Source of the DNA: Candidatus Altiarchaeota archaeon
GTDB taxonomy: Archaea; Altiarchaeota; Altiarchaeia; IMC4; SCGC-AAA252-I15
Assembly (NCBI GenBank): GCA_043800255.1
Contig: JAZDNF010000001.1
Location: 192,001 to 256,000, forward strand
Length of the DNA stretch: 64,000 bases
Direction: 5' to 3'
The notes beneath the pieces are model-generated. The model was not told the DNA's origin, made no database searches, and saw only the letters and a program-made list of their open reading frames with translations. Below are positions 6,793 to 55,218 of the stretch, in pieces (within the stretch, counting starts at the first letter, position 1; every line of letters starts with the position of its first letter). The translations under genes were made by a program, and so were the position numbers.

Positions 6793-7353
6793 ATGAGCCG
6801 CAAAAAATCCAAGAGCAGAGCCCCGGCCGGGGGAGAGCACGATAAAAGCCGGGAGGGACTGGAGCATGAGCTCCAGAAGAGTGCTGAGAGGATAGGTCAT
6901 CTCGAGGGTCAGCTTAAGGACAGAGATGAGAAGTTGAAAGCGTACGTTTCAGACATACAGCGGCTTCAGGCTGATTTCGAAAACCACCTTAAGAGGATGG
7001 GGCGAGAGAGGGAGCAACAGGTCAGGCTAGCCAACAGGGAACTGATACTTGAGTTATTGGACGTGGTTGACAACTTCGACAAGGCTGTCGAGCAGTCGAA
7101 GAAGTCAAGCAACAGCGAAACCCTGGTGAAGGGCATCCATGGCATACACCGGCAACTCCACGACATTCTGCGTGCCAAGGGCCTGCAGCCCATAGCTTCC
7201 CTGGGGAAGAAATTCGACGTCAGCCTGCATGAGGCGGTGTCAACCGTAGACTCCGGTGAAGAGGATACCATAGTTGACGAGGTGCAGAGAGGCTACCTCT
7301 TACACTCACAGGTAATCAGGCCAGCCAAGGTCGTTATCTCAAAAAAACAATGA
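6793..7353 (+). CDS. grpE: nucleotide exchange factor GrpE
   Basis: [29 protein letters not shown]...VIRPAKVVI. Confidence 0.96.
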
Positions 7354-7363
7354 AGGTGATCGT

Positions 7364-9238: not shown

Positions 9239-9241
9239 AAC

Positions 9242-10375
9242 ATGGCAGAGAAGCGGGACTATTACGATGTTCTAGGCGTGGGCAGAAGCGCGTCGCAGTC
9301 TGAGATAAAGAAGGCCTACCGGGGACTGGCGAAAAAGTACCATCCTGACGTGAGCAAGAGCCACGACGCAGAGGAGAAGTTCAAGGAGATGTCCGAGGCT
9401 TACGAGGTTCTGGCAGACGAGGGCAAGAGGCAGTTGTACGACCAGTACGGGCATGCTGGCGTGAGCGGCCAGTTCACCGGAGGCGGATTCAGCTGGGACG
9501 ACTTCACCCACTTCTCGGACATAGAGGACCTCTTCGGTGGCGAATTCTTCGGGAGGAACATATTCGACGTCTTCGTCGGAGGCAGGAGGCAGAGGCGGTC
9601 CGGTCCGCAGAGGGGCGCAGACCTGAGGCACGACCTTGAGACGACATTGGAAGATGCTGCTAGAGGGCTGAAGGCCGAGATTAGCATTCCGAGGCAGATG
9701 AAATGCGGCGCATGCAACGGCAGCGGCGCCGAGAAGGGCTCAAAGCCGAGGACATGCCCGAACTGCTCGGGAACCGGGCAGCAGAGGAGCGAGAGGAGAA
9801 CTCCTTTCGGATTCTTCTCGACCATAACTGCATGCGGCAAATGCAACGGCAGGGGGGAGTTCATAGAAAAGCCGTGCGAGGAGTGCAATGGCACTGGCAT
9901 AGTACAGCAGATGCAGAGGCTGTCTTTGAAGATTCCTGCCGGCGTGAACTCCGGCTCCCACTTGCGGGTTAGGGGGGAGGGTGATGCAGGCTTCAGAGGG
10001 GGGCCTCCAGGAGACCTCTACGTTGTCATAACCGTGAAACCCCACAATTTCTTCGTCAGGGATGGCGATGACCTTTACTGTGAGATTCCTCTGACGTTCT
10101 CGCAGGCTGCCATTGGGTCTGCAATCGATGTTCCAACCCTCACAGGAGAGGCCAAGCTTAAAATTCCAACCGGGACGCAGACTGGCACAGTCTTCAGGCT
10201 CAGGGGTGAGGGGATGCCCCGCCTGGGCGGCTCAAGCAAGGGAGATCAGATGTGCAGGGTCAGAGTCCAGACTCCCAAAAAGTTGTCTAAGAGGGAGAGG
10301 GAGCTCTTCGAGGAGCTTTCCGGCTTCGAGCGGAAGGAGGGGTTCTTCGACAGGGTGAGAAGCACGTTCAGCTGA
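9242..10375 (+). CDS. dnaJ: molecular chaperone DnaJ
   Basis: J-domain HPD, G/F-rich region, four CxxCxGxG repeats. Confidence 0.99.
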
Positions 10376-40263: not shown

Positions 40264-41415
40264 TCAGCCCAGCGGTATGCTTATCAGATTCCAGCCGAGC
40301 GTTAGTGGCACTGTCAGGGTCTGAGAGTCTGAGGGTATGAAGGCGTAGACCGTACTGCCGCCTGCGATGTAAATGATGCCGTCGGCAATGGCGGGGGATG
40401 TGCCCACACTGCCCGAGGTCGTATAGCTCCAGAGGAGCCCGCCGGTGCTTGCATTCAGCACATATACTATATCATCATTAGAGCCTGTGAAGACCATGCC
40501 GCCTGCGATGGCAGGGGAAGACTCCATCCAATCTCCTGTGGTGTAGTTCCATATGTGTTCGCCGGTGCTCGCATTCAAGGCGTAAGTCTTATTGTCCCGT
40601 GAGCCGACGTAGACCATGCCATATGCGACAGCTGGAGTGGATGATATACTCTCACCTGTGGTGTAGTTCCATATGTGTTCGCCGGTGCTGGCATTCAACG
40701 CATGGACTCTGAAGTCATGGGAGCTGAAGAAGACCCTGCCTTCGGAAACCGTAGGGGAAGAGTATACGGAGTTCCCAATACTATAGTTCCACATGTGTCC
40801 GCCGTCGCTGGCATTCAAAGCATAGACGGTAGGGCCTGTATTGCCTATGAAAAGGACGCCGTTAACAACGGCGGGCGGGGAAGTCACGCGCACCAAAGCA
40901 CTATAATTCCAAACATGCGTGCCAGTGGTAGCGTTCAAGGCATAGAGCTTGGAATTGTACCAGGAGCCCACATATACGAAACCGTTGGCAGCGGTGGGCG
41001 GGCCCATATCGTCCCCCACAGTATAATTCCAAAGCGCCTCGCCGGTGCTAGCATTCAAGGCAAAGGTTATATTATTTTCCGAGCTGGCGTAGACCACGCC
41101 GCCAACAACAGCGGGGGAAGCGTCAACAGAATCTCCTGCAGTATAATTCCAGACTTGCAACCCTGTGCCGGCATTCAACGCATAAAGTCTGTTATCATTG
41201 GAGCCTATGAAGACCACGCCGCCAACAACCGCCGGCGAAGAGCTGACCCAACCTCCAGTAGGATAACTCCAGCTTAATGCGAATGCCGTGGCATTAATCT
41301 GGTCGCCCGAATAGCCGGTGTGGTTCAAGTCGTGCATGAACATCGGCCAGTCGGAAGCGTAAACGGTGCCGGAGAACAAGAACAAAAGCCCTGCTAGAGC
41401 CGACCAAGCTCTCAT
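40264..41415 (-). CDS. secreted PQQ-like (BamB-type) beta-propeller protein with C-terminal GWNL motif
   Basis: Signal peptide; DWPMF.HD..HTG; about eight SSPAV..G.VY.GS.D..YALNA.TG..WNY repeats; ends LTLGWNLISIPLG. Confidence 0.9.
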   Translation of the reverse strand: MRAWSALAGLLFLFSGTVYASDWPMFMHDLNHTGYSGDQINATAFALSWSYPTGGWVSSSPAVVGGVVFIGSNDNRLYALNAGTGLQVWNYTAGDSVDASPAVVGGVVYASSENNITFALNASTGEALWNYTVGDDMGPPTAANGFVYVGSWYNSKLYALNATTGTHVWNYSALVRVTSPPAVVNGVLFIGNTGPTVYALNASDGGHMWNYSIGNSVYSSPTVSEGRVFFSSHDFRVHALNASTGEHIWNYTTGESISSTPAVAYGMVYVGSRDNKTYALNASTGEHIWNYTTGDWMESSPAIAGGMVFTGSNDDIVYVLNASTGGLLWSYTTSGSVGTSPAIADGIIYIAGGSTVYAFIPSDSQTLTVPLTLGWNLISIPLG

Positions 41416-41446
41416 AATTGAATATACGATACAGTATAAAAGAACA

Positions 41447-41881
41447 TCAGCCCAGCGGCATGCTGACGAGGTTCCAGCCTATTGTGAGGGAGATTCCGAG
41501 GTCAGTTGAGCTTGGGTTGTCGTATGCTGTTATGCCTCCTTCATACGACTCGAAGGCTCCCTCCGGGACTAGGTACACCTCTTGGCTGTCCTCCTCGCCA
41601 ATACCGCCTATCTCCTCAGAGTATATGTTAGCTTGCAGCCGGTATCCTCCTTCACTGTTGCTAACTGCTGATGTATGTGAGCTGGCTGTTATTCCCGCAT
41701 CGGTGCCGTTCTCACCTGTTTGTGCCGAACCAGTTGTCGGCGTTACGAGGTTGGCATCATACTCTGATTCACTGCCGAAGTAACCTGCTACTCTCTTAGC
41801 TATGCCAGTCTGCACGATAAGGGCGAGCGTGAGGGCTGTTATCAGCAGCAGGTATGCTTTCTCCTTCTTTCTGCTGTCCAT
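41447..41881 (-). CDS. small acidic secreted protein with C-terminal GWNL motif
   Basis: N-terminal hydrophobic signal; low-complexity body; ends LTIGWNLVSMPLG. Confidence 0.7.
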   Translation of the reverse strand: MDSRKKEKAYLLLITALTLALIVQTGIAKRVAGYFGSESEYDANLVTPTTGSAQTGENGTDAGITASSHTSAVSNSEGGYRLQANIYSEEIGGIGEEDSQEVYLVPEGAFESYEGGITAYDNPSSTDLGISLTIGWNLVSMPLG

Positions 41882-41884
41882 CGT

Positions 41885-43432
41885 TTATACGGTGAACATT
41901 ATTATGTCGCCCGCGGGGTTGTTGTCTCCGTAGGTTACGTCTGCGGCAGCGTATGCTGTCGAGTTCGTGTCAATCTCCACTTTGAGCCTATACCTAGTGT
42001 CCTCCCTCAGTTTCAGCTCTTTCGTCGCTCCCAGCGCGAAATTGAACACGCCGCTGCTTATCGAATTGTTGTAAGTGTTCTGCCACAGTTGTGTGCCGCT
42101 TGAGGACAGGACTGTAACCTGTATGCTACCGTTCTGGACTGCAGTCCCAGTTGCTGATTCAGTGAGCTTGCCCTGAACTGTCAGCACGACAGGCTGGGCA
42201 TTGTACATGCTGCTGTATATTCTGTGCGTTTCCCTGTTCGCCAGGCTGCTGACACCATAGTAGACATCGAGGTTGGATCCTGACAGGAGCGCGCCGAGGG
42301 CTATGTCCGACACCCCATCATCGTTGAGGTCGCCTGTCGAGTCAACAGCATAGTTAATCTGCGTATGGTCAAACGTAACATCGCTCGTTCCATCAAACGA
42401 CGAGCTTCCGTAGTATACGTACGCGTCGACTGCGGTCGATCCGACTGTCACAATCAGGTCGTCTATGCCGTCGCCGTTGACGTCTCCTCCGTTGGACAGG
42501 GCCTCCCCATAGTAGTTGTCCGAATGGTCGGATATTGTAAGGTCGCTTGTTCCGTCTAATGCCGTTCCTCCATAATAGACATAGACCAGCCCCGGGTTCC
42601 TTATGGTGGACGACCCTATGACGAGGTCGTCTGCGCTGTCGTCGTTGAGGTCGCCTCCGCATGCTATGGACTTCCCGAAGTATGATGTTGCCGTGTGGTC
42701 TGTGATGTTGACATCGCTTACGTTGTCAAATGATGAGCCGCCGTAGTAGACGTATGCTTTCTTGTCGTTGTAGGAGCCTACAGCGAGGTCGTCCGATCCA
42801 TCGGAATTTAGGTCGCAGCACGCCTGCGCCCAGCCGAAGTATCTTTCACTGACGTGCTCGTCTACTGTCACATCCACTGTAGAATCAAGTGTCGAATTCC
42901 CATAGTAGATGTACGTCTTGTTGTCGTAGAATGCTGCTCCAAGCGCTAAGTCCTTGTAACCATCGTTGTTGAGGTCGCATACTGATATGCTGTATATGTT
43001 GTTCGGTGCGGTAATGGTTAAGTCGCTTGCAGTGTCAAATTCTGGGTTTCCGAGATACACATACGTCCTGTTCGATGTTGATGCGACAACCGCAAGATCG
43101 TCTATGCCGTCGCCATTGAGGTCTCCGACCCCTACAGCGTATCCGAAGTACGCCTGGTCTGTGTGGTCTGATATGATAGCGTCTGAGCTGTTGTCAAAGT
43201 CGGCACCTCCGTAGTATACTAAGACGGTCCTGTTAGGATACGCCGCGCCAACTACCAGGTCTTTTATACCGTCGCCGTTCAAATCGCCTCTAGTGTTCAC
43301 CGACTCCGGGTCTGAAGCGAAGCCGCTCCGTCCGGGAGTTATTATGACATCCCGTGCGGGATCCAGTTGCAGGGCAATAACGCAAAAACCTGTTAGCAGA
43401 AGTCCGAGTGTAATAAGGAGTTCCTTTTTCAT
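41885..43432 (-). CDS. secreted FG-GAP/integrin-alpha-like beta-propeller protein
   Basis: About seven GDLNGDG.DDL.VGA...YVYYG repeats with FG motifs; C-terminal beta-sandwich. Confidence 0.92.
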   Translation of the reverse strand: MKKELLITLGLLLTGFCVIALQLDPARDVIITPGRSGFASDPESVNTRGDLNGDGIKDLVVGAAYPNRTVLVYYGGADFDNSSDAIISDHTDQAYFGYAVGVGDLNGDGIDDLAVVASTSNRTYVYLGNPEFDTASDLTITAPNNIYSISVCDLNNDGYKDLALGAAFYDNKTYIYYGNSTLDSTVDVTVDEHVSERYFGWAQACCDLNSDGSDDLAVGSYNDKKAYVYYGGSSFDNVSDVNITDHTATSYFGKSIACGGDLNDDSADDLVIGSSTIRNPGLVYVYYGGTALDGTSDLTISDHSDNYYGEALSNGGDVNGDGIDDLIVTVGSTAVDAYVYYGSSSFDGTSDVTFDHTQINYAVDSTGDLNDDGVSDIALGALLSGSNLDVYYGVSSLANRETHRIYSSMYNAQPVVLTVQGKLTESATGTAVQNGSIQVTVLSSSGTQLWQNTYNNSISSGVFNFALGATKELKLREDTRYRLKVEIDTNSTAYAAADVTYGDNNPAGDIIMFTV

Positions 43433-43577
43433 CTTGATTAGATATTGTTACCGCTATTTATATCATCTAATCCTCTCCTACTGACGTTCCTAGTTTGACT
43501 GGCTTTCTCAGACGAGCTGATAATCTCCCAGTACATACCTCGTATGTTCAAATCCATTCGGGGCTTTAAACTTTTTC

Positions 43578-46500
43578 CTAAAAAACTAATGGAATAGATA
43601 CCAAGTTCCAACCTATAACTAACGTAATGGTTGATGAAGTGGTAGTCGTTGACTCGCCATAAATTCCAATCGCATAAATCTTATTATCATCTGAACCGAT
43701 GTAAACAACACCGTTATAGACTGCGGGTGGAGCATATATGTTCCCCCCTGCCGTGTAATTCCATATGTGTTCTCCATCAGACGCATTCAGGGCATAAATA
43801 TTATTGCCCCCCGATCCGATATACACGACACCATTAGATACTGCAGGGGAGGATAATATGGAATTCCCCATTGTGTAATTCCATATGTGTGCTCTAGCGC
43901 TGACGTTCAACGCATAAAATCTAGTATCCCATGAGCCCACATATAAAATATCATTAACAACTGCGGGGGAAGAGGATATGTCATCACCGGTTGTGTAATT
44001 CCATATATGCTCACCGGTGGATGCGTTCAATGCGTAAACCTTGTCGTCATATGAACCAAGATATACTACTCCATTCAAAACTGCGGGAGACGAGTCTACC
44101 AGATGGCCTGTTGTGTAATTCCATATCAATGTTCCATCAGAGATATTTATGGCATAAACCTTATGATCTTGAGAACCAACGTACAGAACACCATTCGAAA
44201 TCGCAGGAGAAGAGTCTACTTCATTCCCCACAGTATAGTTCCACATATGCGCTCCACTGGAAGCATTCAAGGCATAAATATTATCGTCCCGTGAACCAAT
44301 GCATACAACATCACTAGCAACTGCTGGAGAAGAGAGTATCAGACCACCAGTTGTGTAGTTCCATATCTGTGCCCCGTTGGATGCATTCAAGGCGTAAGTT
44401 TTATTATCACTTGAACCGATGTAAACCACACCATTTGCAACCGCGGGGGAGGAATATACAGAGCCACCAGTTGTGTAATTCCATCTAAGCGCTCCATTAG
44501 AAGCATTAAATGCGTAGACCTTACTATCGCCTGAACCAATGTAAAGTGTACCATTTACAACAGCAGGGGAAGATCGTACAATACCGCCAGTCGTATAATT
44601 CCAAAGCAGTGTTCTATTCAGGACTACGGGGCTCGTTGTATACCCACTGTGGTTCAGATCATGCCTGAACATCGACCAGTCGTCAATTGCGACTGTAGTA
44701 GTGGTTGTAGTAGTTGTTGTGGTTGTCGAGGTGGTCGTCGTAGTTGTAGTAGTGGTGGTAGTAGTTGTTGTCGTTGTTGTGATTCCAGAACTGAAACAAT
44801 AGACCTTATTGTCGTTAGAGCCCACGACTACCATACCTCCTGCAACAGAAGGCGATGAGTATATAAGCCCACTGGTAGTGTAGTTCCAAATGTGAATTCC
44901 GTTACTTGAATTCAATGCATAAAAACTGTAATCCTCAGAGCCTATCAATACAAGATTATCAACAACTGCTGGCGAAGAAAACACTTCGTATAATGTAGTG
45001 TAATTCCAAATTTCCTGGCCAGAACTAATATTGAGTGCATAGACCTTATTATCATATGATCCTACAAAGACTCTATCACCATAGATGGCTGGCGAAGAGG
45101 ATATATAATTCCTAGTAGTATAGTTCCACAAGTGTTCGCCAGTGCTTGCATTAAGAGCATAAGTCTTGTTGTTCGTGGAGCCAACAAAGACCATTCCATT
45201 AGAAACTGCTGGTGAGGAGTATATGTCTGCTCCGGTACTGTAATTCCAAATCTTAGCGCCGTTGCTGGCATTCAATGCATACACATTGTCATCATATGAC
45301 CCAAAAAAAACCACATTGTTTACCACAGCAGGCGACGAATATATAAAATTTCCAGTACTATAGTTCCAGATTTTTGAGCCATTGCTCACATTCAAGGCAT
45401 ACATGTTACCGTCTCTGGAGCCGAAGAAGACCTCATTGTTTACCACAGCAGGCGATGAGAATACGCTATCACCTGTACTATAGCTCCACATAATTGCACC
45501 ATTGCTGGCATTTATTGCATACGTCCTATTATCCCAGGAACCAACAAAGACTATACCGCCATAGACTGTGGGCGAAGAGAATACATTATCGCCTGTGGTA
45601 AAATTCCAGATTTCTTGGCCAGTACTAATATTGAGTGCATAGACCTTATGGTCATATGATCCCACAAAGACCACTCCGTTTGACACTGTAGGTGAAGAGT
45701 ATACGTCGTCCCCAGTAGTATAGCTCCAGTTGAGAGTCAATCCGCTTGCATTAAACTGGCTTGTTGAATATCCCGTATGGCTCAAATCAGCACGAAACAT
45801 CGGCCAAGCATTGTCATGGCTTACATAAACCACGCCCGCAGAATAATTTCTTACAGTAGTCAAACCGTCATAAACTTCACACCACAGGTAATATGATCTC
45901 CCACCTGACCAGAGACTTGTATCGCAAGTCTCATTTCCATCGTTTGCTGTATTTTCAAAGCATTTGTAAGTTTGGTCGAAGCTTGAATTGTCCTCATCAG
46001 CATAGCAACTTACCCTCAGCGTCTGTACATCAGGGTCTGATGCATTCCAACTCGCTTGAAATGACGAGTCAGATGTCATATTGCTAAAGTTGGGCTGTGA
46101 TATCCCGATTGTCGGAATTTCGTTCGGCCCGAACGCGTATAGTTTGCGGTCGCTGTCCATAGATCCGAAGAAGAGCATACCATTTGCTATCGCCGGGGAG
46201 GAGAGTATTCGTCCTCCTGTGGTGTAGTTCCAGACTAATGCTCCTGTAGTGGCATTTAGCCCATAGGTTGTGTTATCCTCTGAGCCGACAAATACAACGC
46301 CGCTCGCTACGGCGGGGGATGAATAGTATATGTTATCTCTTGCCGTGTAATTCCATATGTGCGCTCCGGTAGATGCATTTAGTGCGTATATTTTATCATC
46401 CTCTGAGCCGACATAAATCATGCCGTAGGCGACGGCAGGTGATGAGGATACATCATATCCTGTTGTGTAGTTCCATACCTGCGCTCCAGAGGTCATATTG

Positions 46501-47243
46501 AATGCATACACGTTGAAATCGTTTCCTCCGAAGTATACCAAACCATTTGAAACCGCTGGCGATGATACGATCCCACCATTAATTCCTGATGAGAAGTTCC
46601 ACACATGAGCGCCTGTGCTCAAATCCAATGAGTAGAATCTCTTGCCCAACTCCGAACCTATGAAGACCATACCCCCAGATAAAGCAGGAGATGATGCTAT
46701 CCTACCCTCTGTGGTGTAGTTCCATATCTGGGTGCCATTGTTGATCCATAATGAGTATGTGATGTTATCATATGATCCAATATAAAGTCTGCCATCTGAA
46801 ACGGTTGGTGAGGACCATATTGAACTTCCTGTCGTGTAATTCCATATCTGCTCCCCTGTGCTTGAGTTGATGGCGAATATTAGGCCGTTTCCTGAACCAA
46901 CATATACTACCTGTGTTGTGACAGTCGGTGATGATACGATGCCTGATCCAAGGCTGGCATTCCACATCTGCCTCCCACTGGTTTCGTTGAGTGCGTATAG
47001 TTTACTGTCTTGTGAGCCGAAGTAGACAACCCCGTTCAATATCGCTGGTGAGGCGAATATGCCATCCCCTGCAGTATAAGTCCACTTTAAAGCTAAACTG
47101 CTGACATTAACAGTGGTTTCTGTCGTATATCCTGTGTGCTCTAAGTCATGGCGGAACATCTGCCAGTCTGCGGCAGAAGCCAATCCAGAGTATGAGAGCA
47201 ATAATGCTAGGGTGAAAACGGTTTTACAACTCATGTTAGGCAA
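43578..47243 (-). CDS. large secreted protein with three PQQ-like beta-propellers, poly-Thr linker and C-terminal GWNL motif
   Basis: Three W.MFR.DL.H.GY propeller starts; 40-aa repeats; ends LVIGWNLVSIPLVF. Confidence 0.92.
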   Translation of the reverse strand: MPNMSCKTVFTLALLLSYSGLASAADWQMFRHDLEHTGYTTETTVNVSSLALKWTYTAGDGIFASPAILNGVVYFGSQDSKLYALNETSGRQMWNASLGSGIVSSPTVTTQVVYVGSGNGLIFAINSSTGEQIWNYTTGSSIWSSPTVSDGRLYIGSYDNITYSLWINNGTQIWNYTTEGRIASSPALSGGMVFIGSELGKRFYSLDLSTGAHVWNFSSGINGGIVSSPAVSNGLVYFGGNDFNVYAFNMTSGAQVWNYTTGYDVSSSPAVAYGMIYVGSEDDKIYALNASTGAHIWNYTARDNIYYSSPAVASGVVFVGSEDNTTYGLNATTGALVWNYTTGGRILSSPAIANGMLFFGSMDSDRKLYAFGPNEIPTIGISQPNFSNMTSDSSFQASWNASDPDVQTLRVSCYADEDNSSFDQTYKCFENTANDGNETCDTSLWSGGRSYYLWCEVYDGLTTVRNYSAGVVYVSHDNAWPMFRADLSHTGYSTSQFNASGLTLNWSYTTGDDVYSSPTVSNGVVFVGSYDHKVYALNISTGQEIWNFTTGDNVFSSPTVYGGIVFVGSWDNRTYAINASNGAIMWSYSTGDSVFSSPAVVNNEVFFGSRDGNMYALNVSNGSKIWNYSTGNFIYSSPAVVNNVVFFGSYDDNVYALNASNGAKIWNYSTGADIYSSPAVSNGMVFVGSTNNKTYALNASTGEHLWNYTTRNYISSSPAIYGDRVFVGSYDNKVYALNISSGQEIWNYTTLYEVFSSPAVVDNLVLIGSEDYSFYALNSSNGIHIWNYTTSGLIYSSPSVAGGMVVVGSNDNKVYCFSSGITTTTTTTTTTTTTTTTTSTTTTTTTTTTTVAIDDWSMFRHDLNHSGYTTSPVVLNRTLLWNYTTGGIVRSSPAVVNGTLYIGSGDSKVYAFNASNGALRWNYTTGGSVYSSPAVANGVVYIGSSDNKTYALNASNGAQIWNYTTGGLILSSPAVASDVVCIGSRDDNIYALNASSGAHMWNYTVGNEVDSSPAISNGVLYVGSQDHKVYAINISDGTLIWNYTTGHLVDSSPAVLNGVVYLGSYDDKVYALNASTGEHIWNYTTGDDISSSPAVVNDILYVGSWDTRFYALNVSARAHIWNYTMGNSILSSPAVSNGVVYIGSGGNNIYALNASDGEHIWNYTAGGNIYAPPAVYNGVVYIGSDDNKIYAIGIYGESTTTTSSTITLVIGWNLVSIPLVF
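44690..44782 (-). repeat. Thr-codon low-complexity tract (poly-Thr linker)
   Basis: (ACN)n run encoding about 30 Thr. Confidence 0.85.
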
Positions 47244-47343
47244 TTAACAATGTGAACGGCATTAAAAATCAGCCAACATCCAGCTATATGGCAAAGGGTG
47301 GGGCGCAGCAGCGTCTTTATTGCGCCCTATCCTATACTATCAT

Positions 47344-48678
47344 ATGCTGAGGAGGGCCAAGCACTTGAAGCCTGTCAAGGAGGCTGTGAAAGAGCTGGCA
47401 GACGATGAAATTCTGAAGAGCACAGACCTTCCTAAGGTAAGAGACGCCCGCAGGATGCTTGAACTCGAGCTGGACATAAACGCAGCAGGCCTGATTGAAG
47501 TCATAGGAGAGCACCCTGACAGGGCGTTGAGAAAATACTTCCATCAGGTGAAGAACAAGTGCGAGAAACAGCACAGGGGGGTTGAGGGTGCGGATGGGCT
47601 GGTGACTGAGAAGTTGATGCTTGGCACCCTGAAGGTTGCGTCCAAGATAGCGCGGGACCAGGGTAAGGATGTGAAAGAAATGCTCTCTGATCAGGGAGTA
47701 GGGGGTCATGTAATCAACGTTAACGAGGTCCTCAAGTTCATAGAACAGAGCATAAACGCTCCTGTCAGGGTCAAAACCGGCGACGAAGAAGAGAATCTGA
47801 TGACAGCAAACGATCTAATCCTCGGCCACATGCTAAATCACAAGAAGACATATGCCGTAAGGAAGGACAGGAACGGATACTATCTGGAGGAGAACTCCAT
47901 TCGCGAGACGATGTACGATAAAGCCCTCAAAAGGCTTACCTTAGAGAGGGACGCCAGCGCGTTAGGCATGTTCGAAGAGCACGTCAACGAGAGGATAAAG
48001 GAGTCGAGGGCCGCTGAACTGGACAGTTCAACTGATGAGTTTGTCCTGGGATTGCTGAAAGAGGCGAGAAAGAATTTCAGCCAACTCAGGGGAGACGACA
48101 TAGGCTACATGAAGAAGGTGCTTGAGAAGAACGTCCTAGAGAGGATGGCGCAGGTCAGCACAGACAAGAAGGGCAACTACCACGGGCTGCTGACATCCGA
48201 CTTGGGCAGGGAAGGCGGCGTCATCAACAACGCAGTATTAGCGATTGCGAAGGTGATGCCACCTGTTTTCGTGTTCACATACGACTGGGAGAAGAACATG
48301 ATGGAACTGAACGTGACAGACGGCAAGAGGCTGGCGAAGCCGTTCGGATACGTGCTAAACCCGACGGTCAGGGATACGCTGCTAAGGGAGTCGAATAAGG
48401 CCGGCATTGACATCATCAAGGCTGAAGGAGGGGACGTCGAGATTGGAGTCGCATCCGCAGGCATCATAGGCGTGGGAGTGTACAAGAGATTCGAAGGATA
48501 TGAGAACATAACCTGGCTGCCGGAGCCTGAAGAGGCCGTCAGGTTAACTCTTGCAGGCATACTCTCAGACCAGGAGTCCGCCAAGAGGAAGAAGCTAGTG
48601 TTCATGCTCGCGAACGGTAACGTCACATCGTGCAACGTGGGCGACATCATCAAGAACATAGACCAGAGGAACAACTAA
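47344..48678 (+). CDS. hypothetical protein
   Basis: Long ORF with genome-typical codon use; no recognised motif; ATG at 47344. Confidence 0.7.
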   Translation: MLRRAKHLKPVKEAVKELADDEILKSTDLPKVRDARRMLELELDINAAGLIEVIGEHPDRALRKYFHQVKNKCEKQHRGVEGADGLVTEKLMLGTLKVASKIARDQGKDVKEMLSDQGVGGHVINVNEVLKFIEQSINAPVRVKTGDEEENLMTANDLILGHMLNHKKTYAVRKDRNGYYLEENSIRETMYDKALKRLTLERDASALGMFEEHVNERIKESRAAELDSSTDEFVLGLLKEARKNFSQLRGDDIGYMKKVLEKNVLERMAQVSTDKKGNYHGLLTSDLGREGGVINNAVLAIAKVMPPVFVFTYDWEKNMMELNVTDGKRLAKPFGYVLNPTVRDTLLRESNKAGIDIIKAEGGDVEIGVASAGIIGVGVYKRFEGYENITWLPEPEEAVRLTLAGILSDQESAKRKKLVFMLANGNVTSCNVGDIIKNIDQRNN

Positions 48679-48687
48679 TCAGAGACG

Positions 48688-48927
48688 ATGAAAGAAGAAA
48701 TCAAGTTCCTGTTCTGCCCAAACTGTCTGAGCAGGAACGTCGGCTGGAACCTGTCCAAGGAATCCTACGCAGGAGGGAGGATATTCAACGAGAAAACCTG
48801 CAAAGCCTGCGGATTCAAAAGCCTGCTGTTCCCTGAGGTCACGGCGGAAGAATACACGAAAATCAAGCAGATGAAGGCTGCAGAAGAGGCAGACGCCGAG
48901 AAGCCGCACGCTATTCCCCCTGAATAG
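48688..48927 (+). CDS. small zinc-ribbon protein
   Basis: CPNC...CKACG. Confidence 0.7.
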   Translation: MKEEIKFLFCPNCLSRNVGWNLSKESYAGGRIFNEKTCKACGFKSLLFPEVTAEEYTKIKQMKAAEEADAEKPHAIPPE

Positions 48928-48934
48928 TGCCGGA

Positions 48935-49396
48935 CTATCCTAAATCCTTTCTGTACCTGACAATCCTCCTCGAGATCGGGAGCAGATTGTGCAATCTCTT
49001 GCCCTCTGCCAGCCCCACGCCGACGAAAAGGCCCTCTGATTTAATTATGACTATGCCCTCGCCCTGCTCACAGGAGATGCTGTCAGCGCCGTTAAAGAGT
49101 TCCAGAGCCTGAGGCCTGCTGACTTCTATAACCTGTTTTGCGGCGGTCTCGCCGATAAGCTGTGCGCCCTCGATTGTCGGCACAATCCCCCGCTCGTCTA
49201 CTGTGACAAAGTGGAGGCCGACCCACTCAGCCCGCACTTCAGGGAGGCTGCTGCCAGAGTAGAGGAATATCCTGTCAATGTTCCTCTTCTTCCTGTGCAC
49301 GAGCACCCTATCCTCAGTAGAGAAGCTGCTCCCGAAGAAACTGTTAACGTCGTCCAAGACCCTTTGCCTCTCCTTTCCAACGCGTTCAATCCTCAT
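48935..49396 (-). CDS. PUA/NIP7-like RNA-binding protein (RsmF C-terminal-like)
   Basis: GL.F......PTIEGAQLIG..A.K.VIEV...A..LFNG.D; overlaps the m5C methyltransferase gene. Confidence 0.8.
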   Translation of the reverse strand: MRIERVGKERQRVLDDVNSFFGSSFSTEDRVLVHRKKRNIDRIFLYSGSSLPEVRAEWVGLHFVTVDERGIVPTIEGAQLIGETAAKQVIEVSRPQALELFNGADSISCEQGEGIVIIKSEGLFVGVGLAEGKRLHNLLPISRRIVRYRKDLG

Positions 49397-50285
49397 CCTT
49401 CACCACCTTCGCGATAAAGTATGAGTCGGCATCATTGTGCTGCGGCAGAATCCTGATACAGTCTCTGGCTTTCTCGGTCAGACCTGCCATGAACTCCAGT
49501 CCGGGCGGAGACTCCCTCACAAGATGCGCATCATCATATTTTAAGAGCAGATGCTCTATCACCTGCTCATTCTCCTCCAAAGAAGTCGTGCACGTCGAAT
49601 AGACGAGCGATCCGCCCGGCTTAAGCATGCTGTAGGCGTCAACTATCATCCTCTTCTGGAGGCTGCTGAGACGCTTCACCCTCTCCAGGCTCCAGCGCCT
49701 CAAGGCGTCAGGATTCTTCCTCACGGTCCCAACGTCGCTGCAGGGCGCGTCCAACAGTATCCGGTCAAACTCCTGGCCCAGGCTGCTGTAGCGGCAGCCA
49801 TCGCTTTTGGTGACTATCGCATTACGGACGCCGCAACGCTGGAGGTTGTAGACTAGAGCCCGGATTCGCGAGAAGTTAGGCTCGTTGGCTACCAGCAGAC
49901 CGCGGTTCTTCATCAGAGCAGCCAGGTGTGTGGTCTTGCTGCCAGGTGCTGCGCACAGGTCCAGAACGCGGTCCCCATCCGCAGGGCTGAGGACTACCGG
50001 AGGCACCATCGACATCGGCGTCTGGATGTAGTAGAAGCCGAGCTGATGTTCCATGGTATTGAGGCCGCCCTCTCCAACCCAGAGGCAGTCATCGCACCAT
50101 TGCATGCCGGCATATTCTATCCTATGCTCCTTGAGAGCCTTCTTCACGAAGCTCATCTCGCATTTGAGGGTGTTCACCCTCAAAGACCATCTGTTGTAAT
50201 GCATCTGGATGTGACTGATGAAGCTATCGTACTCCCTCCCCAGCAGCCTCTCATGGTATCTGAGAAACTCATCAGGCAATCTCAT
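49386..50285 (-). CDS. RsmB/NOL1/NOP2 family RNA m5C methyltransferase
   Basis: LRVNTLK, DLCAAPGSKT, ILLDAPCS, VYSTCT...EENE. Confidence 0.95.
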   Translation of the reverse strand: MRLPDEFLRYHERLLGREYDSFISHIQMHYNRWSLRVNTLKCEMSFVKKALKEHRIEYAGMQWCDDCLWVGEGGLNTMEHQLGFYYIQTPMSMVPPVVLSPADGDRVLDLCAAPGSKTTHLAALMKNRGLLVANEPNFSRIRALVYNLQRCGVRNAIVTKSDGCRYSSLGQEFDRILLDAPCSDVGTVRKNPDALRRWSLERVKRLSSLQKRMIVDAYSMLKPGGSLVYSTCTTSLEENEQVIEHLLLKYDDAHLVRESPPGLEFMAGLTEKARDCIRILPQHNDADSYFIAKVVKDED

Positions 50286-50527
50286 GGAGCATCCCACCTG
50301 AACCCACAATCATGAACCACGGCAAGATCCTTCTCGCACCTTGGGAACTTCCTGCACTGGAGCGGTCTTATAACATATACTCTGCACTTCTCCCTGCCGG
50401 AGAGGAACAAACATCTTATGGGAAGCTTACAGCATGCTGCGCCGCAGGCTTCTGGCGTGCACTCTCCTCTCCGGTTAGCCTGCACTGGCAGAAACGACTC
50501 TAAAAGGCGCCTGATTTTTTCAAGCAT
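50282..50527 (-). CDS. YkgJ-like Cys-cluster protein
   Basis: C...CGAACC, C.FL....C.VY..RP.QCR.FP. Confidence 0.75.
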   Translation of the reverse strand: MLEKIRRLLESFLPVQANRRGECTPEACGAACCKLPIRCLFLSGREKCRVYVIRPLQCRKFPRCEKDLAVVHDCGFRWDAP

Positions 50528-50554
50528 AAATAACTTTGTGCAAAATGTCTTATA

Positions 50555-51184
50555 ATGAGGATGCCTTTTGTCACCGAGGGCCTGATAGTCGGCGTAGGGC
50601 TGATACTGACCGGGAGCGCGCTGTATGCCTACGATAAAATGTCAATAATGCTTATCGCGGCTGGCGCCTTCACATTGTACTTCTTCAGGGATCCTGAGCG
50701 TACCGTCCCATCCGGGGAGGATGCTATCGTCTCCCCAGCTGATGGAACGATTGACAGAGTTCAGAACCTAATTGAGCCGTCTTTTGTCGGCTCCAAAGGG
50801 AAGATGATAAGCATAGTGCTCTCGCCGTTCGACGTCCACGTGAACAGGATGCCGGTCGACGGCACTGTGAAAAAAATAGAAAGGGAGAGCGGCTCCAAGC
50901 TGCCGGCAAAATGGGACAAAGCTTTCGACCATAACGAGCGGAACCATATAATGATTCAGGGTGGCATCCCCGTAGTAGTGACCCAGATAACCGGAATATT
51001 CGCCCGCAGGATAGTCTGCTGGGTCCGTGAGGGCGACCGATTAAAGCGGGGGCAGCGGCTTGGCATGATACGATTCGGCTCGAGGACTAACATAGTTTTG
51101 CCTGAGAACGTGAAAGTCTCGGTGAGAAGAGGCGACAGGGTGAGGGGGGGCGAGACTATAATAGCAAGAATCATAAAATCATAA
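50555..51184 (+). CDS. psd: phosphatidylserine (archaetidylserine) decarboxylase proenzyme
   Basis: FFRDP.R, SPADG, DVHVNR.P, NERN, GMIRFGSR self-cleavage site. Confidence 0.93.
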   Translation: MRMPFVTEGLIVGVGLILTGSALYAYDKMSIMLIAAGAFTLYFFRDPERTVPSGEDAIVSPADGTIDRVQNLIEPSFVGSKGKMISIVLSPFDVHVNRMPVDGTVKKIERESGSKLPAKWDKAFDHNERNHIMIQGGIPVVVTQITGIFARRIVCWVREGDRLKRGQRLGMIRFGSRTNIVLPENVKVSVRRGDRVRGGETIIARIIKS

Positions 51185-51188
51185 GAAG

Positions 51189-51863
51189 ATGAAACCCAAG
51201 AACATCCTCATGCAGATACCTGACCTCCTGACGCTGCTCAACCTGCTCATGGGATTCACAGCAATAGTGTTCATCCTCCAATCAGACCCAACTAAGGCGG
51301 CGTTGTCCATACTGCTGGCGGTGCTGCTGGACATATCAGACGGATTCTTCTCCCGCAGACTGAATACGAGCAGCAAATTCGGCCTGGAATTGGATTCATT
51401 AGCGGACATGGCGTCATTCGGAATAGCGCCTGGCATAATAGCGTACACAGTATTCCTGAAGTCTTCCGGCGGTGTCATGCTGTCAGCACTCATCCCCCTT
51501 TGCAGTGCAATACGCCTCGCAAGGTATAATATAATAGACGACAAGAATTCGTTCACAGGCCTTCCGACCCCCGCGATGGGAGGGTTCATAGCCTCGCTGG
51601 TTTTGACAGGCATTACCGTCCAAACCTACCATGTCGCAATATGGGTTGTGCTCCTGTGCGCTCTCATGGTGAGCGAGATCCCATTCCACAGGTACAGGCG
51701 ACTCCCGACCAAGAGATTTTCGAAACCCCTCCTGCTGCTTCTATTGAGCCTGATACCCCCCTTCTTCGACATCAGGCTCATCATCGTGCCATTCCTCACG
51801 TATATCATCCTCGGAGTGGTTACTCATTTCTGGAGGATTGCGCAGACCAGGAGCAAATCCTGA
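51189..51863 (+). CDS. pssA: CDP-alcohol phosphatidyltransferase, phosphatidylserine (archaetidylserine) synthase
   Basis: D..DG..SR......FG..LDSLAD..SFG.AP, RLARYN, F.GLPTP. Confidence 0.92.
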   Translation: MKPKNILMQIPDLLTLLNLLMGFTAIVFILQSDPTKAALSILLAVLLDISDGFFSRRLNTSSKFGLELDSLADMASFGIAPGIIAYTVFLKSSGGVMLSALIPLCSAIRLARYNIIDDKNSFTGLPTPAMGGFIASLVLTGITVQTYHVAIWVVLLCALMVSEIPFHRYRRLPTKRFSKPLLLLLLSLIPPFFDIRLIIVPFLTYIILGVVTHFWRIAQTRSKS

Positions 51864-51879
51864 AAGACAATACCCCAGC

Positions 51880-53688
51880 TCAGTCCAGTGGTATGCTTAT
51901 AAGATTCCAGCCGAGGGTGAGGGCTACTCCAACGGTTGACGAGAGGCTCTCTCCCCCTATCGTGTAAGTACTGAAGTGGCTCACATTCGCCCACACGAAA
52001 TCGCCAGAGGCGTTCACATCGGTAGCATACACCCACGCCATAGAAGACGCGTTCAACCTCTGCCAATCTGAGAGACTAGTGTTAAACCAGTACATTGCCA
52101 GCGTCGACTCGTTCAGATTGCTGGCGTTCAGCTCCTCAGCAGTATAGTACATCTGAATGACAGTCGAATTCAGATTCTCCGCGAGAGACTGGCTCACAGT
52201 GATTTCCAAGTACCTGCCTAAGGAAGGTACAACGAAGGAAGAATTCGTCGGATTCCCAGAATACGAAGTAACGTTCACATCAGCATCGACTAGGGTAGTA
52301 TTCGTCACAATAACCAACGTAGCATTCACAGTCGATGCGTTAATAACGGTAGTATTAAAGGCGGTAAAATTCTCAGTCCAATTATAATTGATAACCTCAA
52401 TAGTCGACGTGGAAGTAGACGAAGAAGTTGTGGAAGTCGACGTTGAAGTTGTGGACGTGGAACTTGAAGTAGACGTTGACGTGGACGTTGAAGTGCTGAT
52501 ACTGGTTGTTGTAGACGTGCTGGTAGATGTCGTTGATGTCGACGTGGTAGGTGTTACAGAAATCCTATGATAGTACAGTCCAGACCCCCGCGTCCAAGCG
52601 ATTGGTACATAATCTGAACTCGCATTAACCTTTTTTGGAAAAACAGGATAACGGCAATCACCACTATTGTCCACTATCACCCTATCTCCCCAAGACGTTG
52701 TATTCGAGCTGAAACGCCTGTAAGTCAGGGCATTAAACCCCGAATCCTGTCTCAAATATGCTGCGAAAACATCAGACCCGTAGGACGTAATGCTAACCAG
52801 TCCGGCATCGCTCACGTCATCGACCGTCACCGGCGCCGACCAATTCGAATCCGATTTCTTCTTGTAAGCATGGCGCAGCCTATCCTCTCCAGTATCCTCC
52901 CAGTACACGACATGAACGTTCCCATCATCAGTTTGGGTGACAGAGAAAACGCGGGTCAGCCAATTCGATGTCTCCAAACCCAGCTCAAAATCGGCATCCT
53001 CCACAAACGTCGAGCCATTCCAACCATAAAAGGAAAGGCTGTTCTCTCCTGCTGTAAGCTCCCATATGAGGGCATAGGGTGTGTTATCAATCACAATGGC
53101 TCCGACCCTGTTGTTGGCGTTAATCCCGGATGCTAGAACATCATAAGTCCAGGCATTCCCGTTATCGGCAGACAGATCATAGTACATGTTTGAGTTGCTA
53201 TTCTCTCTCGTGAAAATCCACACGTTGCCTCCATGAGCCAAGACGGCAGCATCCGTGGTTGATGTGGAAAAATGGGCGAATGCATCATCATAAGCTGGGT
53301 CATAATCGCCTGCCTGAGTTGCGGACGAGTTTATCCTCTTGTAGGAATGCGCCCCGCCGGTTCCGCGCTGGCCAGTGTGTATGTTACCGTAAGCGTCTAT
53401 GTCAAAGGAGTCGTGGTCGCCGACGTTGTAAAATCCTATGGCAGTCCAATTATCGCCTCCATCGCTACTATAATGTGCGTCAGGGTCTGTTCCGGCATGG
53501 AATATCCACAGCTTATCATTCTCGTCTGCGGACATCAGCATCTTCCTCCTCGGAATCCCGAGCAACGAATCCTGGCCCATGCCTGAAGATGTCACAGTTA
53601 CTATCTCCTGTGCGGGAATGTAGTTACTAGAAACTATCAGGAACAGGACTATCAGAATCAATGTGACTCTAAATTTTCCCCCTACCAT
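51880..53688 (-). CDS. secreted BNR/Asp-box propeller protein with Ser/Thr linker and C-terminal GWNL motif
   Basis: S.DGG.NW and S.DNG..W Asp-boxes; Ser/Thr tract; PGF-pre-PGF-like domain (VWANVSHFSTY); ends LTLGWNLISIPLD. Confidence 0.85.
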   Translation of the reverse strand: MVGGKFRVTLILIVLFLIVSSNYIPAQEIVTVTSSGMGQDSLLGIPRRKMLMSADENDKLWIFHAGTDPDAHYSSDGGDNWTAIGFYNVGDHDSFDIDAYGNIHTGQRGTGGAHSYKRINSSATQAGDYDPAYDDAFAHFSTSTTDAAVLAHGGNVWIFTRENSNSNMYYDLSADNGNAWTYDVLASGINANNRVGAIVIDNTPYALIWELTAGENSLSFYGWNGSTFVEDADFELGLETSNWLTRVFSVTQTDDGNVHVVYWEDTGEDRLRHAYKKKSDSNWSAPVTVDDVSDAGLVSITSYGSDVFAAYLRQDSGFNALTYRRFSSNTTSWGDRVIVDNSGDCRYPVFPKKVNASSDYVPIAWTRGSGLYYHRISVTPTTSTSTTSTSTSTTTSISTSTSTSTSTSSSTSTTSTSTSTTSSSTSTSTIEVINYNWTENFTAFNTTVINASTVNATLVIVTNTTLVDADVNVTSYSGNPTNSSFVVPSLGRYLEITVSQSLAENLNSTVIQMYYTAEELNASNLNESTLAMYWFNTSLSDWQRLNASSMAWVYATDVNASGDFVWANVSHFSTYTIGGESLSSTVGVALTLGWNLISIPLD

Positions 53689-53766
53689 ATTAACAATAAA
53701 CTCCTCAACTTAAAGACAAACCCCCGCACCAACCTGCGCCAGATGCCAACAGTATATCCTATGGGA

Positions 53767-55218
53767 TCAGCCTAGCGGGATTGATATGAGATTCCAGCCG
53801 AGGAAGACGGTGAATGCGTAGTTTGTTGATTCAGGCAGGATCGTGATCTGAGTCGACATCGAACTTGATGATGCGTTGCCGAGGCTGTCATAGGCTGAGA
53901 CGTTCACGATGTTGGCGACGGTCTGTGCGGAGGCGATGGACGAAAAGTTGACGTAGACCAGATAGGAGCTGCCTGATGTGAGGTTCATGGAGGCGTTAAC
54001 CCAGCTGACGAGCCTGTTCGAGTAGTTGATTGATGTGGGAGTCACGGAAGCGGAAGTGTAGTTCAAGTCGACGTCATAGTTGTCGGCTATGCTCAAGTTG
54101 GTGATGTTCGAGGAGCCGATGTTGGTGACGTTTATGAGGAACCGCGTTATGTTGCCCACTATGACTGCTTCCTCGTTCAAGAGGGTCTTGTTCACCGTGA
54201 ACTGACAGCTGTTCGCGGCTGAAACCGTTAGAAGCTCGGTGTTCCAGTCCTGGAAGGCGCCTGAGCTGTTGTACAGTGTGAAGTTCAGGATGTGGTCGCC
54301 TACGGAAAGGCCGCTCGTGTTAAAGCTTATGTTCAAGACGACCGTCGTCGGAGCGGAGGTGACGTTCTCCGTATGATTCCACCTATTGACGCCGTCCGCA
54401 AGTATCAGGATGTTGAAACTGTCGTTGTAGCCTGACGTCAGCGGAACATGCGCGTAGACTAGGGAGCCAGCTTCAACCTGGCTGTCGCTCAGGTTGATGA
54501 CGCCCAACCCTGCTGTTGTGCCGTTTCCATCAGATGATGAGGCGATGTTCAGATCGGCCCATTCGTCCCAGCGGGAGGTGTTGGCGTCGACCGTGTTCTG
54601 CGGGTAGCGGTAGTTGTCGGCGTCGACTCCGTCGTATGTCTCGATCCTGAAGCCTATGGCGCTGCCCAATGCGACTGCCATGTCCCTGGCTTCGGAGGAG
54701 TTCAACGGCTTAGAGAACTCGTAAACGTACTGCCCTGAGGAGTAGCTGCTCGAGCCGTTCCCATGGGAGGTTCCATTACCATCTCCCACGTCGCGCACCC
54801 ACCAGTCAGTGGGTGCGGAAGTTCCCCAGTAATCGTCGCCGTATTCACTGAAATAGTATCCGAATTCTGCGGCGTCCTCGCCGCCCAACGTCGCAGTGTG
54901 ATCGTGCCCGTTGTCGAACATGAACACTGCATAGTCGGTTCCAACCTGCTGTGCGCTATCGTCTATGACAGCGGCCATGAACAGGTGAGTGTTGTTGTTC
55001 ATTATGTACAACTCTCCGCTTATTGTGTTCGCAGGTGTTGTGAAGCCGTTGAGGGTTATGTTCATGCCGTTAGACCACTCTCCCGCGCCCAGGCTGCCGT
55101 CGATGGTGGGCGGGCTGGTCGTGTAAGACGAGTTAAGGAGAGCAACTGCGCTCACATCAGGCATGGTCGCATAAACGAAGACTAACACGACGATCAATGA
55201 GGGTATCCTGCTTTCCAT
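53767..55218 (-). CDS. secreted DOMON/CBM9-like plus DUF11-like protein with C-terminal GWNL motif
   Basis: PTIDG.L..GEW, YVYEFSKPL; KT...G....F.INVTN.G...I.NL.I.D; ends VFLGWNLISIPLG. Confidence 0.82.
   Translation of the reverse strand: MESRIPSLIVVLVFVYATMPDVSAVALLNSSYTTSPPTIDGSLGAGEWSNGMNITLNGFTTPANTISGELYIMNNNTHLFMAAVIDDSAQQVGTDYAVFMFDNGHDHTATLGGEDAAEFGYYFSEYGDDYWGTSAPTDWWVRDVGDGNGTSHGNGSSSYSSGQYVYEFSKPLNSSEARDMAVALGSAIGFRIETYDGVDADNYRYPQNTVDANTSRWDEWADLNIASSSDGNGTTAGLGVINLSDSQVEAGSLVYAHVPLTSGYNDSFNILILADGVNRWNHTENVTSAPTTVVLNISFNTSGLSVGDHILNFTLYNSSGAFQDWNTELLTVSAANSCQFTVNKTLLNEEAVIVGNITRFLINVTNIGSSNITNLSIADNYDVDLNYTSASVTPTSINYSNRLVSWVNASMNLTSGSSYLVYVNFSSIASAQTVANIVNVSAYDSLGNASSSSMSTQITILPESTNYAFTVFLGWNLISIPLG

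Follow-up and report, generated by a model that had tools for sequence, protein, structure and literature searches.

Why should five secreted proteins encoded in one stretch of archaeal DNA end in the same few residues? The question was raised by 64,000 nucleotides of a Candidatus Altiarchaeota archaeon, hereafter the window (contig C8, positions 192001-256000, of an assembly of 17 contigs and 1.75 Mb that is 93% complete), in which five minus-strand open reading frames (ORFs) terminate in GWNL[IV]S[IM]PL and one or two further residues before the stop. A preliminary description of this DNA had quoted these ends exactly as they stand in the ORF list, the stop falling 1-2 residues past PL, and had proposed a new sorting or anchoring signal, which either docks by strand complementation or is read by a transpeptidase or an export machine. 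In what follows, G000 is this genome, G0xx are other genomes, P00xx are cluster representatives and Lxxx are excerpted loci.

As judged by sequence comparison, the shared end, here called the tag, is the detached first beta-strand (strand A) of a C-terminal tandem beta-domain module. The same comparison indicates that the module is divided between genes in this genome and in several other genera of the same phylum. We consider it probable on balance that the two parts assemble in trans, with secreted cargo proteins keeping strand A and one gene for a protein of 179 amino acids (aa), here called the acceptor, supplying the remainder.

The shared end corresponds to strand A of a widespread C-terminal module

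A scan of species-representative genomes with the wider pattern L..GWNLISIPL gave at least 115 stretches with at least 118 instances, and the listed matches came from Thermoplasmata, Methanomassiliicoccales, Woese-, Nano- and Aenigmatarchaeota, Methanosarcinales, Chloroflexota and others. In 82 of the 118 listed instances, 100-230 aa lay between the motif and the stop (median 154; 63 within 135-165). Among the rest, more than 230 aa followed in 13 and 9-99 aa in 6, the frame ran off the end of the locus in 10, and the stop came within 8 residues in 7. These 7 listed terminal instances were two chance frames, one complete module with an in-frame stop, and four in genomes of the phylum studied here. 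Since the motif is mostly trailed by about 154 aa, it is normally the start of a module of about 155-170 aa at the C-terminus, which agrees with the earlier statement that L..GWNL.S.P usually appears as the opening of a larger domain.

Two domains of about 85 aa that resemble each other make up the module; one opens with GWNLIS.P, the next with GWNLIGYP, and each ends with a GYW[IV] strand. Strand A itself spans about 17 residues (h-x-h-x-x-G-W-N-L-I-S-x-P-L). A profile of the module matched 10079 proteins at E<=0.001 among 1.84 billion cluster representatives, and in the best 150 matches the module commonly stood at the extreme end of proteins of 200-3400 aa. Judged from these matches, thousands of secreted proteins, from archaea and from some bacteria, end in the module. 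Pfam and NCBIfam contained no model for the tag or the module, as examined by scans of the tagged proteins, the acceptor and its operon neighbours.

The relation between tag and module could also be read within G000, where a tagged 498-aa protein on contig C16 is a collinear paralogue of a 565-aa protein on contig C5. The tag of the former (GWNLVSFPL, residues 488-496) aligns with the GWNLISLPV (390-398) that opens the complete module of the latter, and the stop follows 2 residues on. In the six-frame scan and a local hidden Markov model (HMM) search, the G000 tags consisted of strand A alone, with no remainder of the module downstream. The preliminary description had regarded orthologues that continue into a full domain as a sign of truncation. 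Homologues in other lineages do continue in this way, which shows where the tag originated without marking it as a product of decay. The idea of a new signal of the sortase type was not borne out, the motif being strand A of a module.

Two interrupted copies were seen elsewhere. At L244:3-1316, from an archaeon of another lineage, a single in-frame stop separates GWNLISIPLELDD from the remainder of a complete module, which could be a pseudogene, an assembly error, a case of read-through or an incipient split. In G022 (L108:400-980), strand A of a complete module is interrupted by an in-frame stop (GWN*LSTYLVP), and neither a coding frame nor a signal peptide precedes the module; this is probably a broken gene.

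Tags are conserved at the ends of secreted proteins across the genome

The pattern GWN[LIMV][IVLF][SGAT].P was scanned in six frames over the whole 1.75-Mb genome, in open frames of at least 40 aa. The motif was terminal, 2-4 residues ahead of the stop, in 20 of 23 instances, and the remaining 3 were internal, all within two proteins of contig C5. Nineteen of the terminal tags belong to full-length genes spread over nine contigs. The twentieth lies in a 45-aa orphan frame (L006:2345-2479; G000 C7:200342-200479) made up only of the tag and the end of the domain that precedes it in some proteins (the pre-tag domain, see below); because tblastn gave no upstream remainder, this frame is taken as a gene remnant.

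As shown by the alignment of the G000 tags, G, W, N, S and P were unchanged in 20 of 20. Identity at the three codon positions over the 27-nt core was 0.76/0.94/0.43, and serine was encoded by both codon families (AGY 13, TCN 7). Invariant residues combined with synonymous codon variation mean that selection acts on the tag peptide, as had been argued for the five window genes. All three stop codons are used by the tagged genes, and therefore no stop-codon recoding is involved.

In a crude hydrophobicity test, 18 of the 19 full-length tagged proteins had a signal-peptide-like N-terminus, compared with 335 of 1261 background ORFs (27%), and the start of the nineteenth (43578-47243), MSCKTVFTLALLLSYSGLASA, looks signal-peptide-like by eye. 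The co-occurrence of motif and signal peptide, which the preliminary description had suggested counting, thus held across the genome. The bodies identified by Pfam among these 19 proteins were lamin-tail domains (LTD, 7), PQQ propellers (3), NosD/beta-helix (2), NHL (2) and CARDB (2), together with one protease each of families C25, S8 and M6.

None of the 19 proteins had a transmembrane (TM)-grade window at its C-terminus (best 19-residue Kyte-Doolittle window in the last 30 aa, at most 1.58), and Lys and Arg were absent from the last 8 residues in 19 of 19, so the reported lack of a TM helix and a basic tail was reproduced. No match to an exosortase/archaeosortase gene (PF09721) was found in G000, which is 93% complete, while the control genome of Methanocaldococcus jannaschii was positive. 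Pfam and NCBIfam scans of the tagged proteins gave no match to sorting-signal models, Por_Secre_tail included, and scans of the tagged proteins and the acceptor gave none to dockerin or cohesin families.

The acceptor lacks exactly the strand that the tags carry

The acceptor, encoded outside the window, has a cleavable-looking signal peptide (MKK..., a hydrophobic core, and VSA before a presumed cut ahead of Q), then a first domain without exactly strand A, then a complete second domain. The predicted mature protein opens with ...TLISTALSSINGQY / ...TLISTALSSINGQYILVYAYN..., a stretch that stands right behind strand A both in the acceptor's second domain and in complete modules. In a joint alignment, tag and acceptor together span the whole module: the tag, as in window gene 1, ends at IPLG, and the mature acceptor begins 3 columns later.

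The strand-less layout is kept in P0002-P0006, five relatives of 173-179 aa with 42-80% identity, and occurs also in P0009, P0012, P0015 and divergent proteins of G008 and G035; in two more distant matches the first domain is complete. A domain short of one strand, the mark of donor-strand systems, was thus found in the 179-aa protein and its relatives. Within G000, the local HMM search found the module only in two proteins of contig C5 and weakly in one of contig C16, and the 179-aa protein was the only strand-deficient copy found.

The two domains of the acceptor were also compared with each other. In the G000 acceptor, P0002-P0006, P0009, P0012 and P0015, the domain cores are 66-79% identical within a protein, compared with a mean of 54% between orthologues. 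Because identity within proteins exceeds that between orthologues, the sequences suggest concerted evolution of the two copies by gene conversion.

The tag is predicted to fit the vacant slot of the acceptor

The AlphaFold2 model of the acceptor, built from an 8-row alignment, reached a predicted local distance difference test (pLDDT) of 76 and a predicted template modelling score (pTM) of 0.71. In this model, the second domain has strand A at residues 96-106 and a long last strand (E165-177), and the last strand of the first domain is short (E74-78). Foldseek with the model gave no match in the PDB at E<=0.001, and the best Z in a wide VIA search was 4.3, from which fold novelty does not follow. 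FN3 had no match on the acceptor at E<=1, and a search of the ESM Atlas gave only unnamed look-alike clusters.

Complex prediction was performed for one tag-acceptor pair, with the mature acceptor (predicted residues 23-179) as one chain and the C-terminal 36 aa of the 144-aa window protein as the other, each supplied as an alignment. The interface score ipSAE was 0.83, 0.81 and 0.84, compared with 0.02 for the best of 3 controls; the partner had a pLDDT of 62-64, and contacts agreed to at least 96% between runs. The ipSAE mark had been passed by 58 of 80 solved complexes and 2 of 110 mismatched pairs, a calibration only roughly valid for alignments of our own. In the predicted complex, partner residues 16-36 (of 36) contact acceptor residues 72-92, and the tag (21-31) runs antiparallel to acceptor residues 74-85. 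The model shows that the tag fits the vacant slot of the acceptor first domain, and since tag and missing strand are homologues, the prediction speaks for compatibility and not for binding or affinity. An isopeptide bond between the Asn of GWN and Lys77, which are adjacent in the model, was considered and dropped; since Lys77 varies among acceptor orthologues, no isopeptide chemistry is indicated.

Tags and acceptors occur together in several genomes of the phylum

The tag profile (A1) had matches in 38 of 61 genomes of the phylum at E<=1, a count that takes in internal strand A. Among the best 40 tag matches from other genomes, 32 were terminal, with the stop 5-9 residues after GWNLIS, 1 had 14 residues, and 7 opened complete modules. 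Among 20 weaker matches, the stop followed within 9 residues in 15, some of them maybe by chance, 1 ran into a Thr-rich tail and 4 were internal. Terminal tags were verified in G000, G005, G008, G009, G020, G023, G031, G032, G035 and G043-G046. Acceptor-type genes were verified in 8 genomes (G000, G008, G020, G023, G035, G044, G045 and G046, where the gene is incomplete at the edge of a contig), and 8 of 8 carry verified terminal tags; among the 61 genomes searched, an acceptor-type gene was seen in none that lacked terminal tags. Complete modules stand alongside tags in G000 (the 565-aa protein) and G005.

Proposed docking through a divided module

In the docking that we favour, Sec would export both cargo and acceptor. 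The C-terminal strand of the cargo would enter the vacant slot, antiparallel to the last strand of the acceptor first domain (about Y74-L85), and the whole module would be rebuilt non-covalently on each cargo. The rebuilt module would take over the role of the covalent one, most likely retention at the cell envelope, perhaps via C-terminally membrane-anchored proteins encoded beside the acceptor. In its widest form, some Altiarchaeota would have a general non-covalent display system, in which a single secreted catcher of 16 kDa has its fold completed by the C-terminal strands of about 20 different secreted enzymes and adhesin-like proteins, and the rebuilt module is held by the membrane-anchored proteins of the operon; we rate this extended form as possible, with the chances lying slightly the other way. 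The strand complementation put forward in the preliminary description is retained in part. Its docking half is favoured by the identity of the tag with strand A, by a conserved strand-less secreted protein and by the controlled co-fold (ipSAE 0.83 vs 0.02), from which binding is predicted; the scaffold it had imagined is replaced, the candidate being a small soluble-looking protein and not a surface layer (S-layer).

Several points weigh against this docking. The main gap is that no acceptor was found with three queries (A4, A5 of the G008/G035 type, and a G032-type module as a single protein) in five tag-bearing genomes, G005 (93% complete), G032 (91%), G009 (85%), G031 (84%) and G043 (57%); the small or N-terminal matches inspected in G005, G009, G032 and G043 either carried the complete module or were located at the end of a contig. 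An anchor is missing from the acceptor itself, and one acceptor gene would need to serve about 19 cargo genes. The predictor may also merely complete a domain that it recognises by likeness. Contigs of one metatranscriptome run cover L002 8269-11077, that is, the 467-aa and 565-aa genes upstream in the operon, at 99% or more, and do not reach the acceptor gene. Because contigs cannot show absence, this is neutral as to acceptor expression.

Other explanations of the tag

The genomes in which no acceptor was found invite the view that the tag adds as a beta-strand to some other partner, such as complete modules (by strand swap), the S-layer, hamus-like filaments or the membrane, and that the 179-aa protein has another role. 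Docking to a different partner is possible, above all where no acceptor was found (as in G005 and G032), and complete modules do coexist with tags in G000 and G005. As an account of the tag in general it seems unlikely to us, given that the 179-aa protein is the sole strand-deficient copy of the module found in G000, that the tag end and the acceptor start fall within 3 alignment columns of each other, and that the controlled complex prediction favours this very pair. The hamus grappling-hook protein has an S_layer_N-type N-terminus according to the text of PMC4460559; S_layer_N, the hamus-type N-terminus as far as that text describes it, had no match at E<=1 on the acceptor and the related proteins examined.

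Alternatively, the tag might be a sorting signal read by some peptidase, transpeptidase or export machine, for example to or across the outer membrane, with the 179-aa protein unrelated to it. Two membranes are described for Candidatus Altiarchaeum in the text of PMC4460559, which would suit such a route. The cargo is also like that of known C-terminal sorting systems (C25, S8 and M6 proteases, propellers, lamin-tail-domain, CARDB and beta-helix proteins), and the five tag-bearing genomes in which no acceptor was detected would pose no difficulty. The ends themselves argue otherwise, as 19 of 19 have neither a TM-grade window nor Lys or Arg in the last 8 residues, and G000 contains no exosortase/archaeosortase gene, with the control genome positive, and no match to a Pfam or NCBIfam sorting model. 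A sorting signal would moreover leave unexplained why the tag is exactly strand A and why a conserved protein without that strand is present in the same genomes. We give this explanation a small chance, and the earlier suggestion of a transpeptidase or export-machine signal gained no support. Decay into functionless, pseudogene-like remnants of full modules, to which the full module of homologues elsewhere and the 45-aa orphan might point, is so improbable that it can be set aside, because 20 ends share the cut position and all keep G, W, N, S and P while their codons change synonymously, the same cut recurs in 32 of the best 40 matches from other genomes of the phylum, and no G000 tag has a module remainder downstream.

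Comparison with known systems

Donor-strand complementation or exchange is known from chaperone-usher pili (Fim/Pap), from type V pili of Bacteroidota (FimA/Mfa1, with C-terminal donor strands) and from archaeal threads, cannulae and bundling pili. The proposed docking through a divided module would resemble them in that a strand-deficient beta domain is completed, here by prediction, by the strand of another polypeptide, and it would resemble type V pili in having the N-terminal strand vacant and the donor C-terminal. It differs from such filaments in that about 19 unrelated cargo proteins carry the donor only and one small protein carries the groove only; because donor and groove sit on different kinds of protein, no polymer is possible. 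Nor are a chaperone, an usher or a processing protease encoded nearby, and the fold is another one. The full-text literature searched on the hami of Altiarchaeum and on donor strand complementation in archaeal surface proteins, subscription journals being outside coverage, contained filament systems only and no split docking system.

C-terminal sorting systems include PGF-CTERM/archaeosortase, PEP-CTERM/exosortase, LPXTG/sortase and the C-terminal domain of the type IX secretion system (T9SS). PGF-CTERM and PEP-CTERM signals combine a signature motif, a hydrophobic TM helix and a basic tail, and the T9SS domain is a beta-sandwich of about 80-100 aa. The tag is like these signals in being one short end common to many unrelated secreted proteins, including proteases and adhesin-like proteins. 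Unlike them, it comes without a TM helix, basic tail, cognate sortase gene or model match, and the element is a domain fragment rather than a motif read by an enzyme; compared with the T9SS domain, it measures only about 17 aa and has no Por_Secre_tail match.

Another close relative is the covalent tandem module, to whose first strand the tag is homologous and to whose remainder the acceptor is homologous; there the module is usually one piece at the protein end (e.g. P0013, P0018 and P0019), whereas here it is divided between genes. Engineered split-domain pairs such as SpyTag/SpyCatcher, and cohesin-dockerin docking, likewise pair a short tag on many cargo proteins with one receptor module in extracellular assembly. 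They differ from the present case in that no isopeptide chemistry is indicated here, the Lys not being conserved, and in that no dockerin or cohesin family was matched.

In the present case, the split domain would connect a range of unrelated cargo proteins with a single shared acceptor, and no polymer would form. The full-text literature contained no paper on a GWNLIS-type motif or on such a tag-and-catcher system, subscription journals and the supplements of PMC4460559 being outside coverage. If the reading is true, many unrelated secreted proteins would be localised without a sortase, a lipid or a membrane helix, by a shared domain remainder supplied in trans, which would be a principle of protein localisation not described for any cell. 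It would also open a first way into the organisation of surface or periplasmic proteins in a phylum whose two-membrane envelope is unusual, hint for the first time at what a very large module (more than 10,000 cluster representatives) does, and provide a natural pair of 17-residue tag and small catcher for protein engineering.

Genomic context and possible anchoring

The 602-aa window protein carries ahead of its tag the pre-tag domain, which is about 170-200 aa long, has no Pfam model and ends VWANVSHFS.YT.GG; five other tagged G000 proteins have it in the same place (on C4, C10 and C15, and two on C7). In tag-bearing genomes this domain is followed by the tag, in the tag-less G030 and G025 by a Thr-rich linker, a C-terminal TM helix and a basic tail, and in G013 by a helical tail. 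Because the domain leads to either a tag or a TM anchor, the tag occupies the place of its relatives' membrane anchor.

The acceptor lies in a gene cluster with the order LTD protein with a terminal complete module, signal-peptide protein anchored by a C-terminal TM helix, acceptor, and one or two small TM-anchored proteins. This order is kept in G000, G044 and G045, and similar layouts were found in G008, G035, G020 and G023. In G000 the membrane-anchored neighbours lie at L002:6106-6912, 6909-7460 and 8143-9546. Synteny alone suggests that these neighbours may hold the completed module.

Some further features of these proteins were recorded. The helical tail in G013 (L114, on contig C35) has repeated ...INKWA... 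/ ...ITAWA... motifs. A comparable tail is present at the end of a 190-aa protein next to the G020 acceptor (L058:908-1477), and a tail of this type may be a further docking element. In the operon neighbours L002:6106-6912 and 8143-9546 and in L119 (G030), Cys-rich modules (C.DG..NQGE.G.DCGG.C..C) lie ahead of the C-terminal membrane anchor, and in the G030 homologue such a module lies in the stalk that stands in for the tag. The LTD proteins L002:9579-11276, L013:172-1665, L081:295-1977, L080:505-2004 and L123:46-1737 have a common N-terminus of basic residues, a hydrophobic core and LLY[LF]SGPS[ST]A, which may represent a special class of signal peptide or cleavage site.

Tagged genes of the window

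The five tagged genes and the acceptor gene are listed in Table 1. As for the bodies assigned to the window proteins in the preliminary description, Pfam agreed on PQQ propellers in two proteins and DUF11 in one, while it gave no Asp-box propeller or DOMON, and no family at all for the proteins of 144 and 602 aa.

Table 1. Positions of the tagged cargo genes, their strand-A tags and the acceptor gene (window coordinates unless a contig is named)
Feature	Position	Strand	Basis or remark
Cargo gene 1: signal peptide and PQQ-like beta-propeller, 383 aa, C-terminus ...LTVPLTLGWNLISIPLG	40264..41415	-	ORF list; Pfam PQQ_2 E 7.7e-63
Strand-A tag, gene 1, final 17 codons	40267..40317	-	Alignment with strand A of complete modules
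Cargo gene 2: signal peptide, 144 aa, C-terminus ...GISLTIGWNLVSMPLG	41447..41881	-	No Pfam/NCBIfam family
Strand-A tag, gene 2	41450..41500	-	Predicted contacts with acceptor residues 72-92
Cargo gene 3: three PQQ-like propellers, 1221-aa ORF, C-terminus ...TITLVIGWNLVSIPLVF	43578..47243	-	Pfam Beta-prop_ACSF4 / PQQ_2
Strand-A tag, gene 3	43581..43631	-	ORF list, tag alignment
Cargo gene 4, 602 aa: N-terminal part without Pfam match, Ser/Thr linker, pre-tag domain (...VWANVSHFSTYTIGG), tag ...GVALTLGWNLISIPLD	51880..53688	-	
Strand-A tag, gene 4	51883..51933	-	ORF list, tag alignment, pre-tag domain comparison
Cargo gene 5: signal peptide, DUF11-type repeat, 483 aa, C-terminus ...AFTVFLGWNLISIPLG	53767..55218	-	Pfam DUF11 E 1.2e-5
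Strand-A tag, gene 5	53770..53820	-	ORF list, tag alignment
Acceptor gene, 179 aa	C5:35523-36062 (L002:7523-8062), outside the window	-	Two genes downstream of the 565-aa gene

Amid the tagged genes, the minus strand at 41885-43432 encodes a 515-aa FG-GAP repeat protein that has a signal peptide, is free of the tag and ends ...GDIIMFTV.

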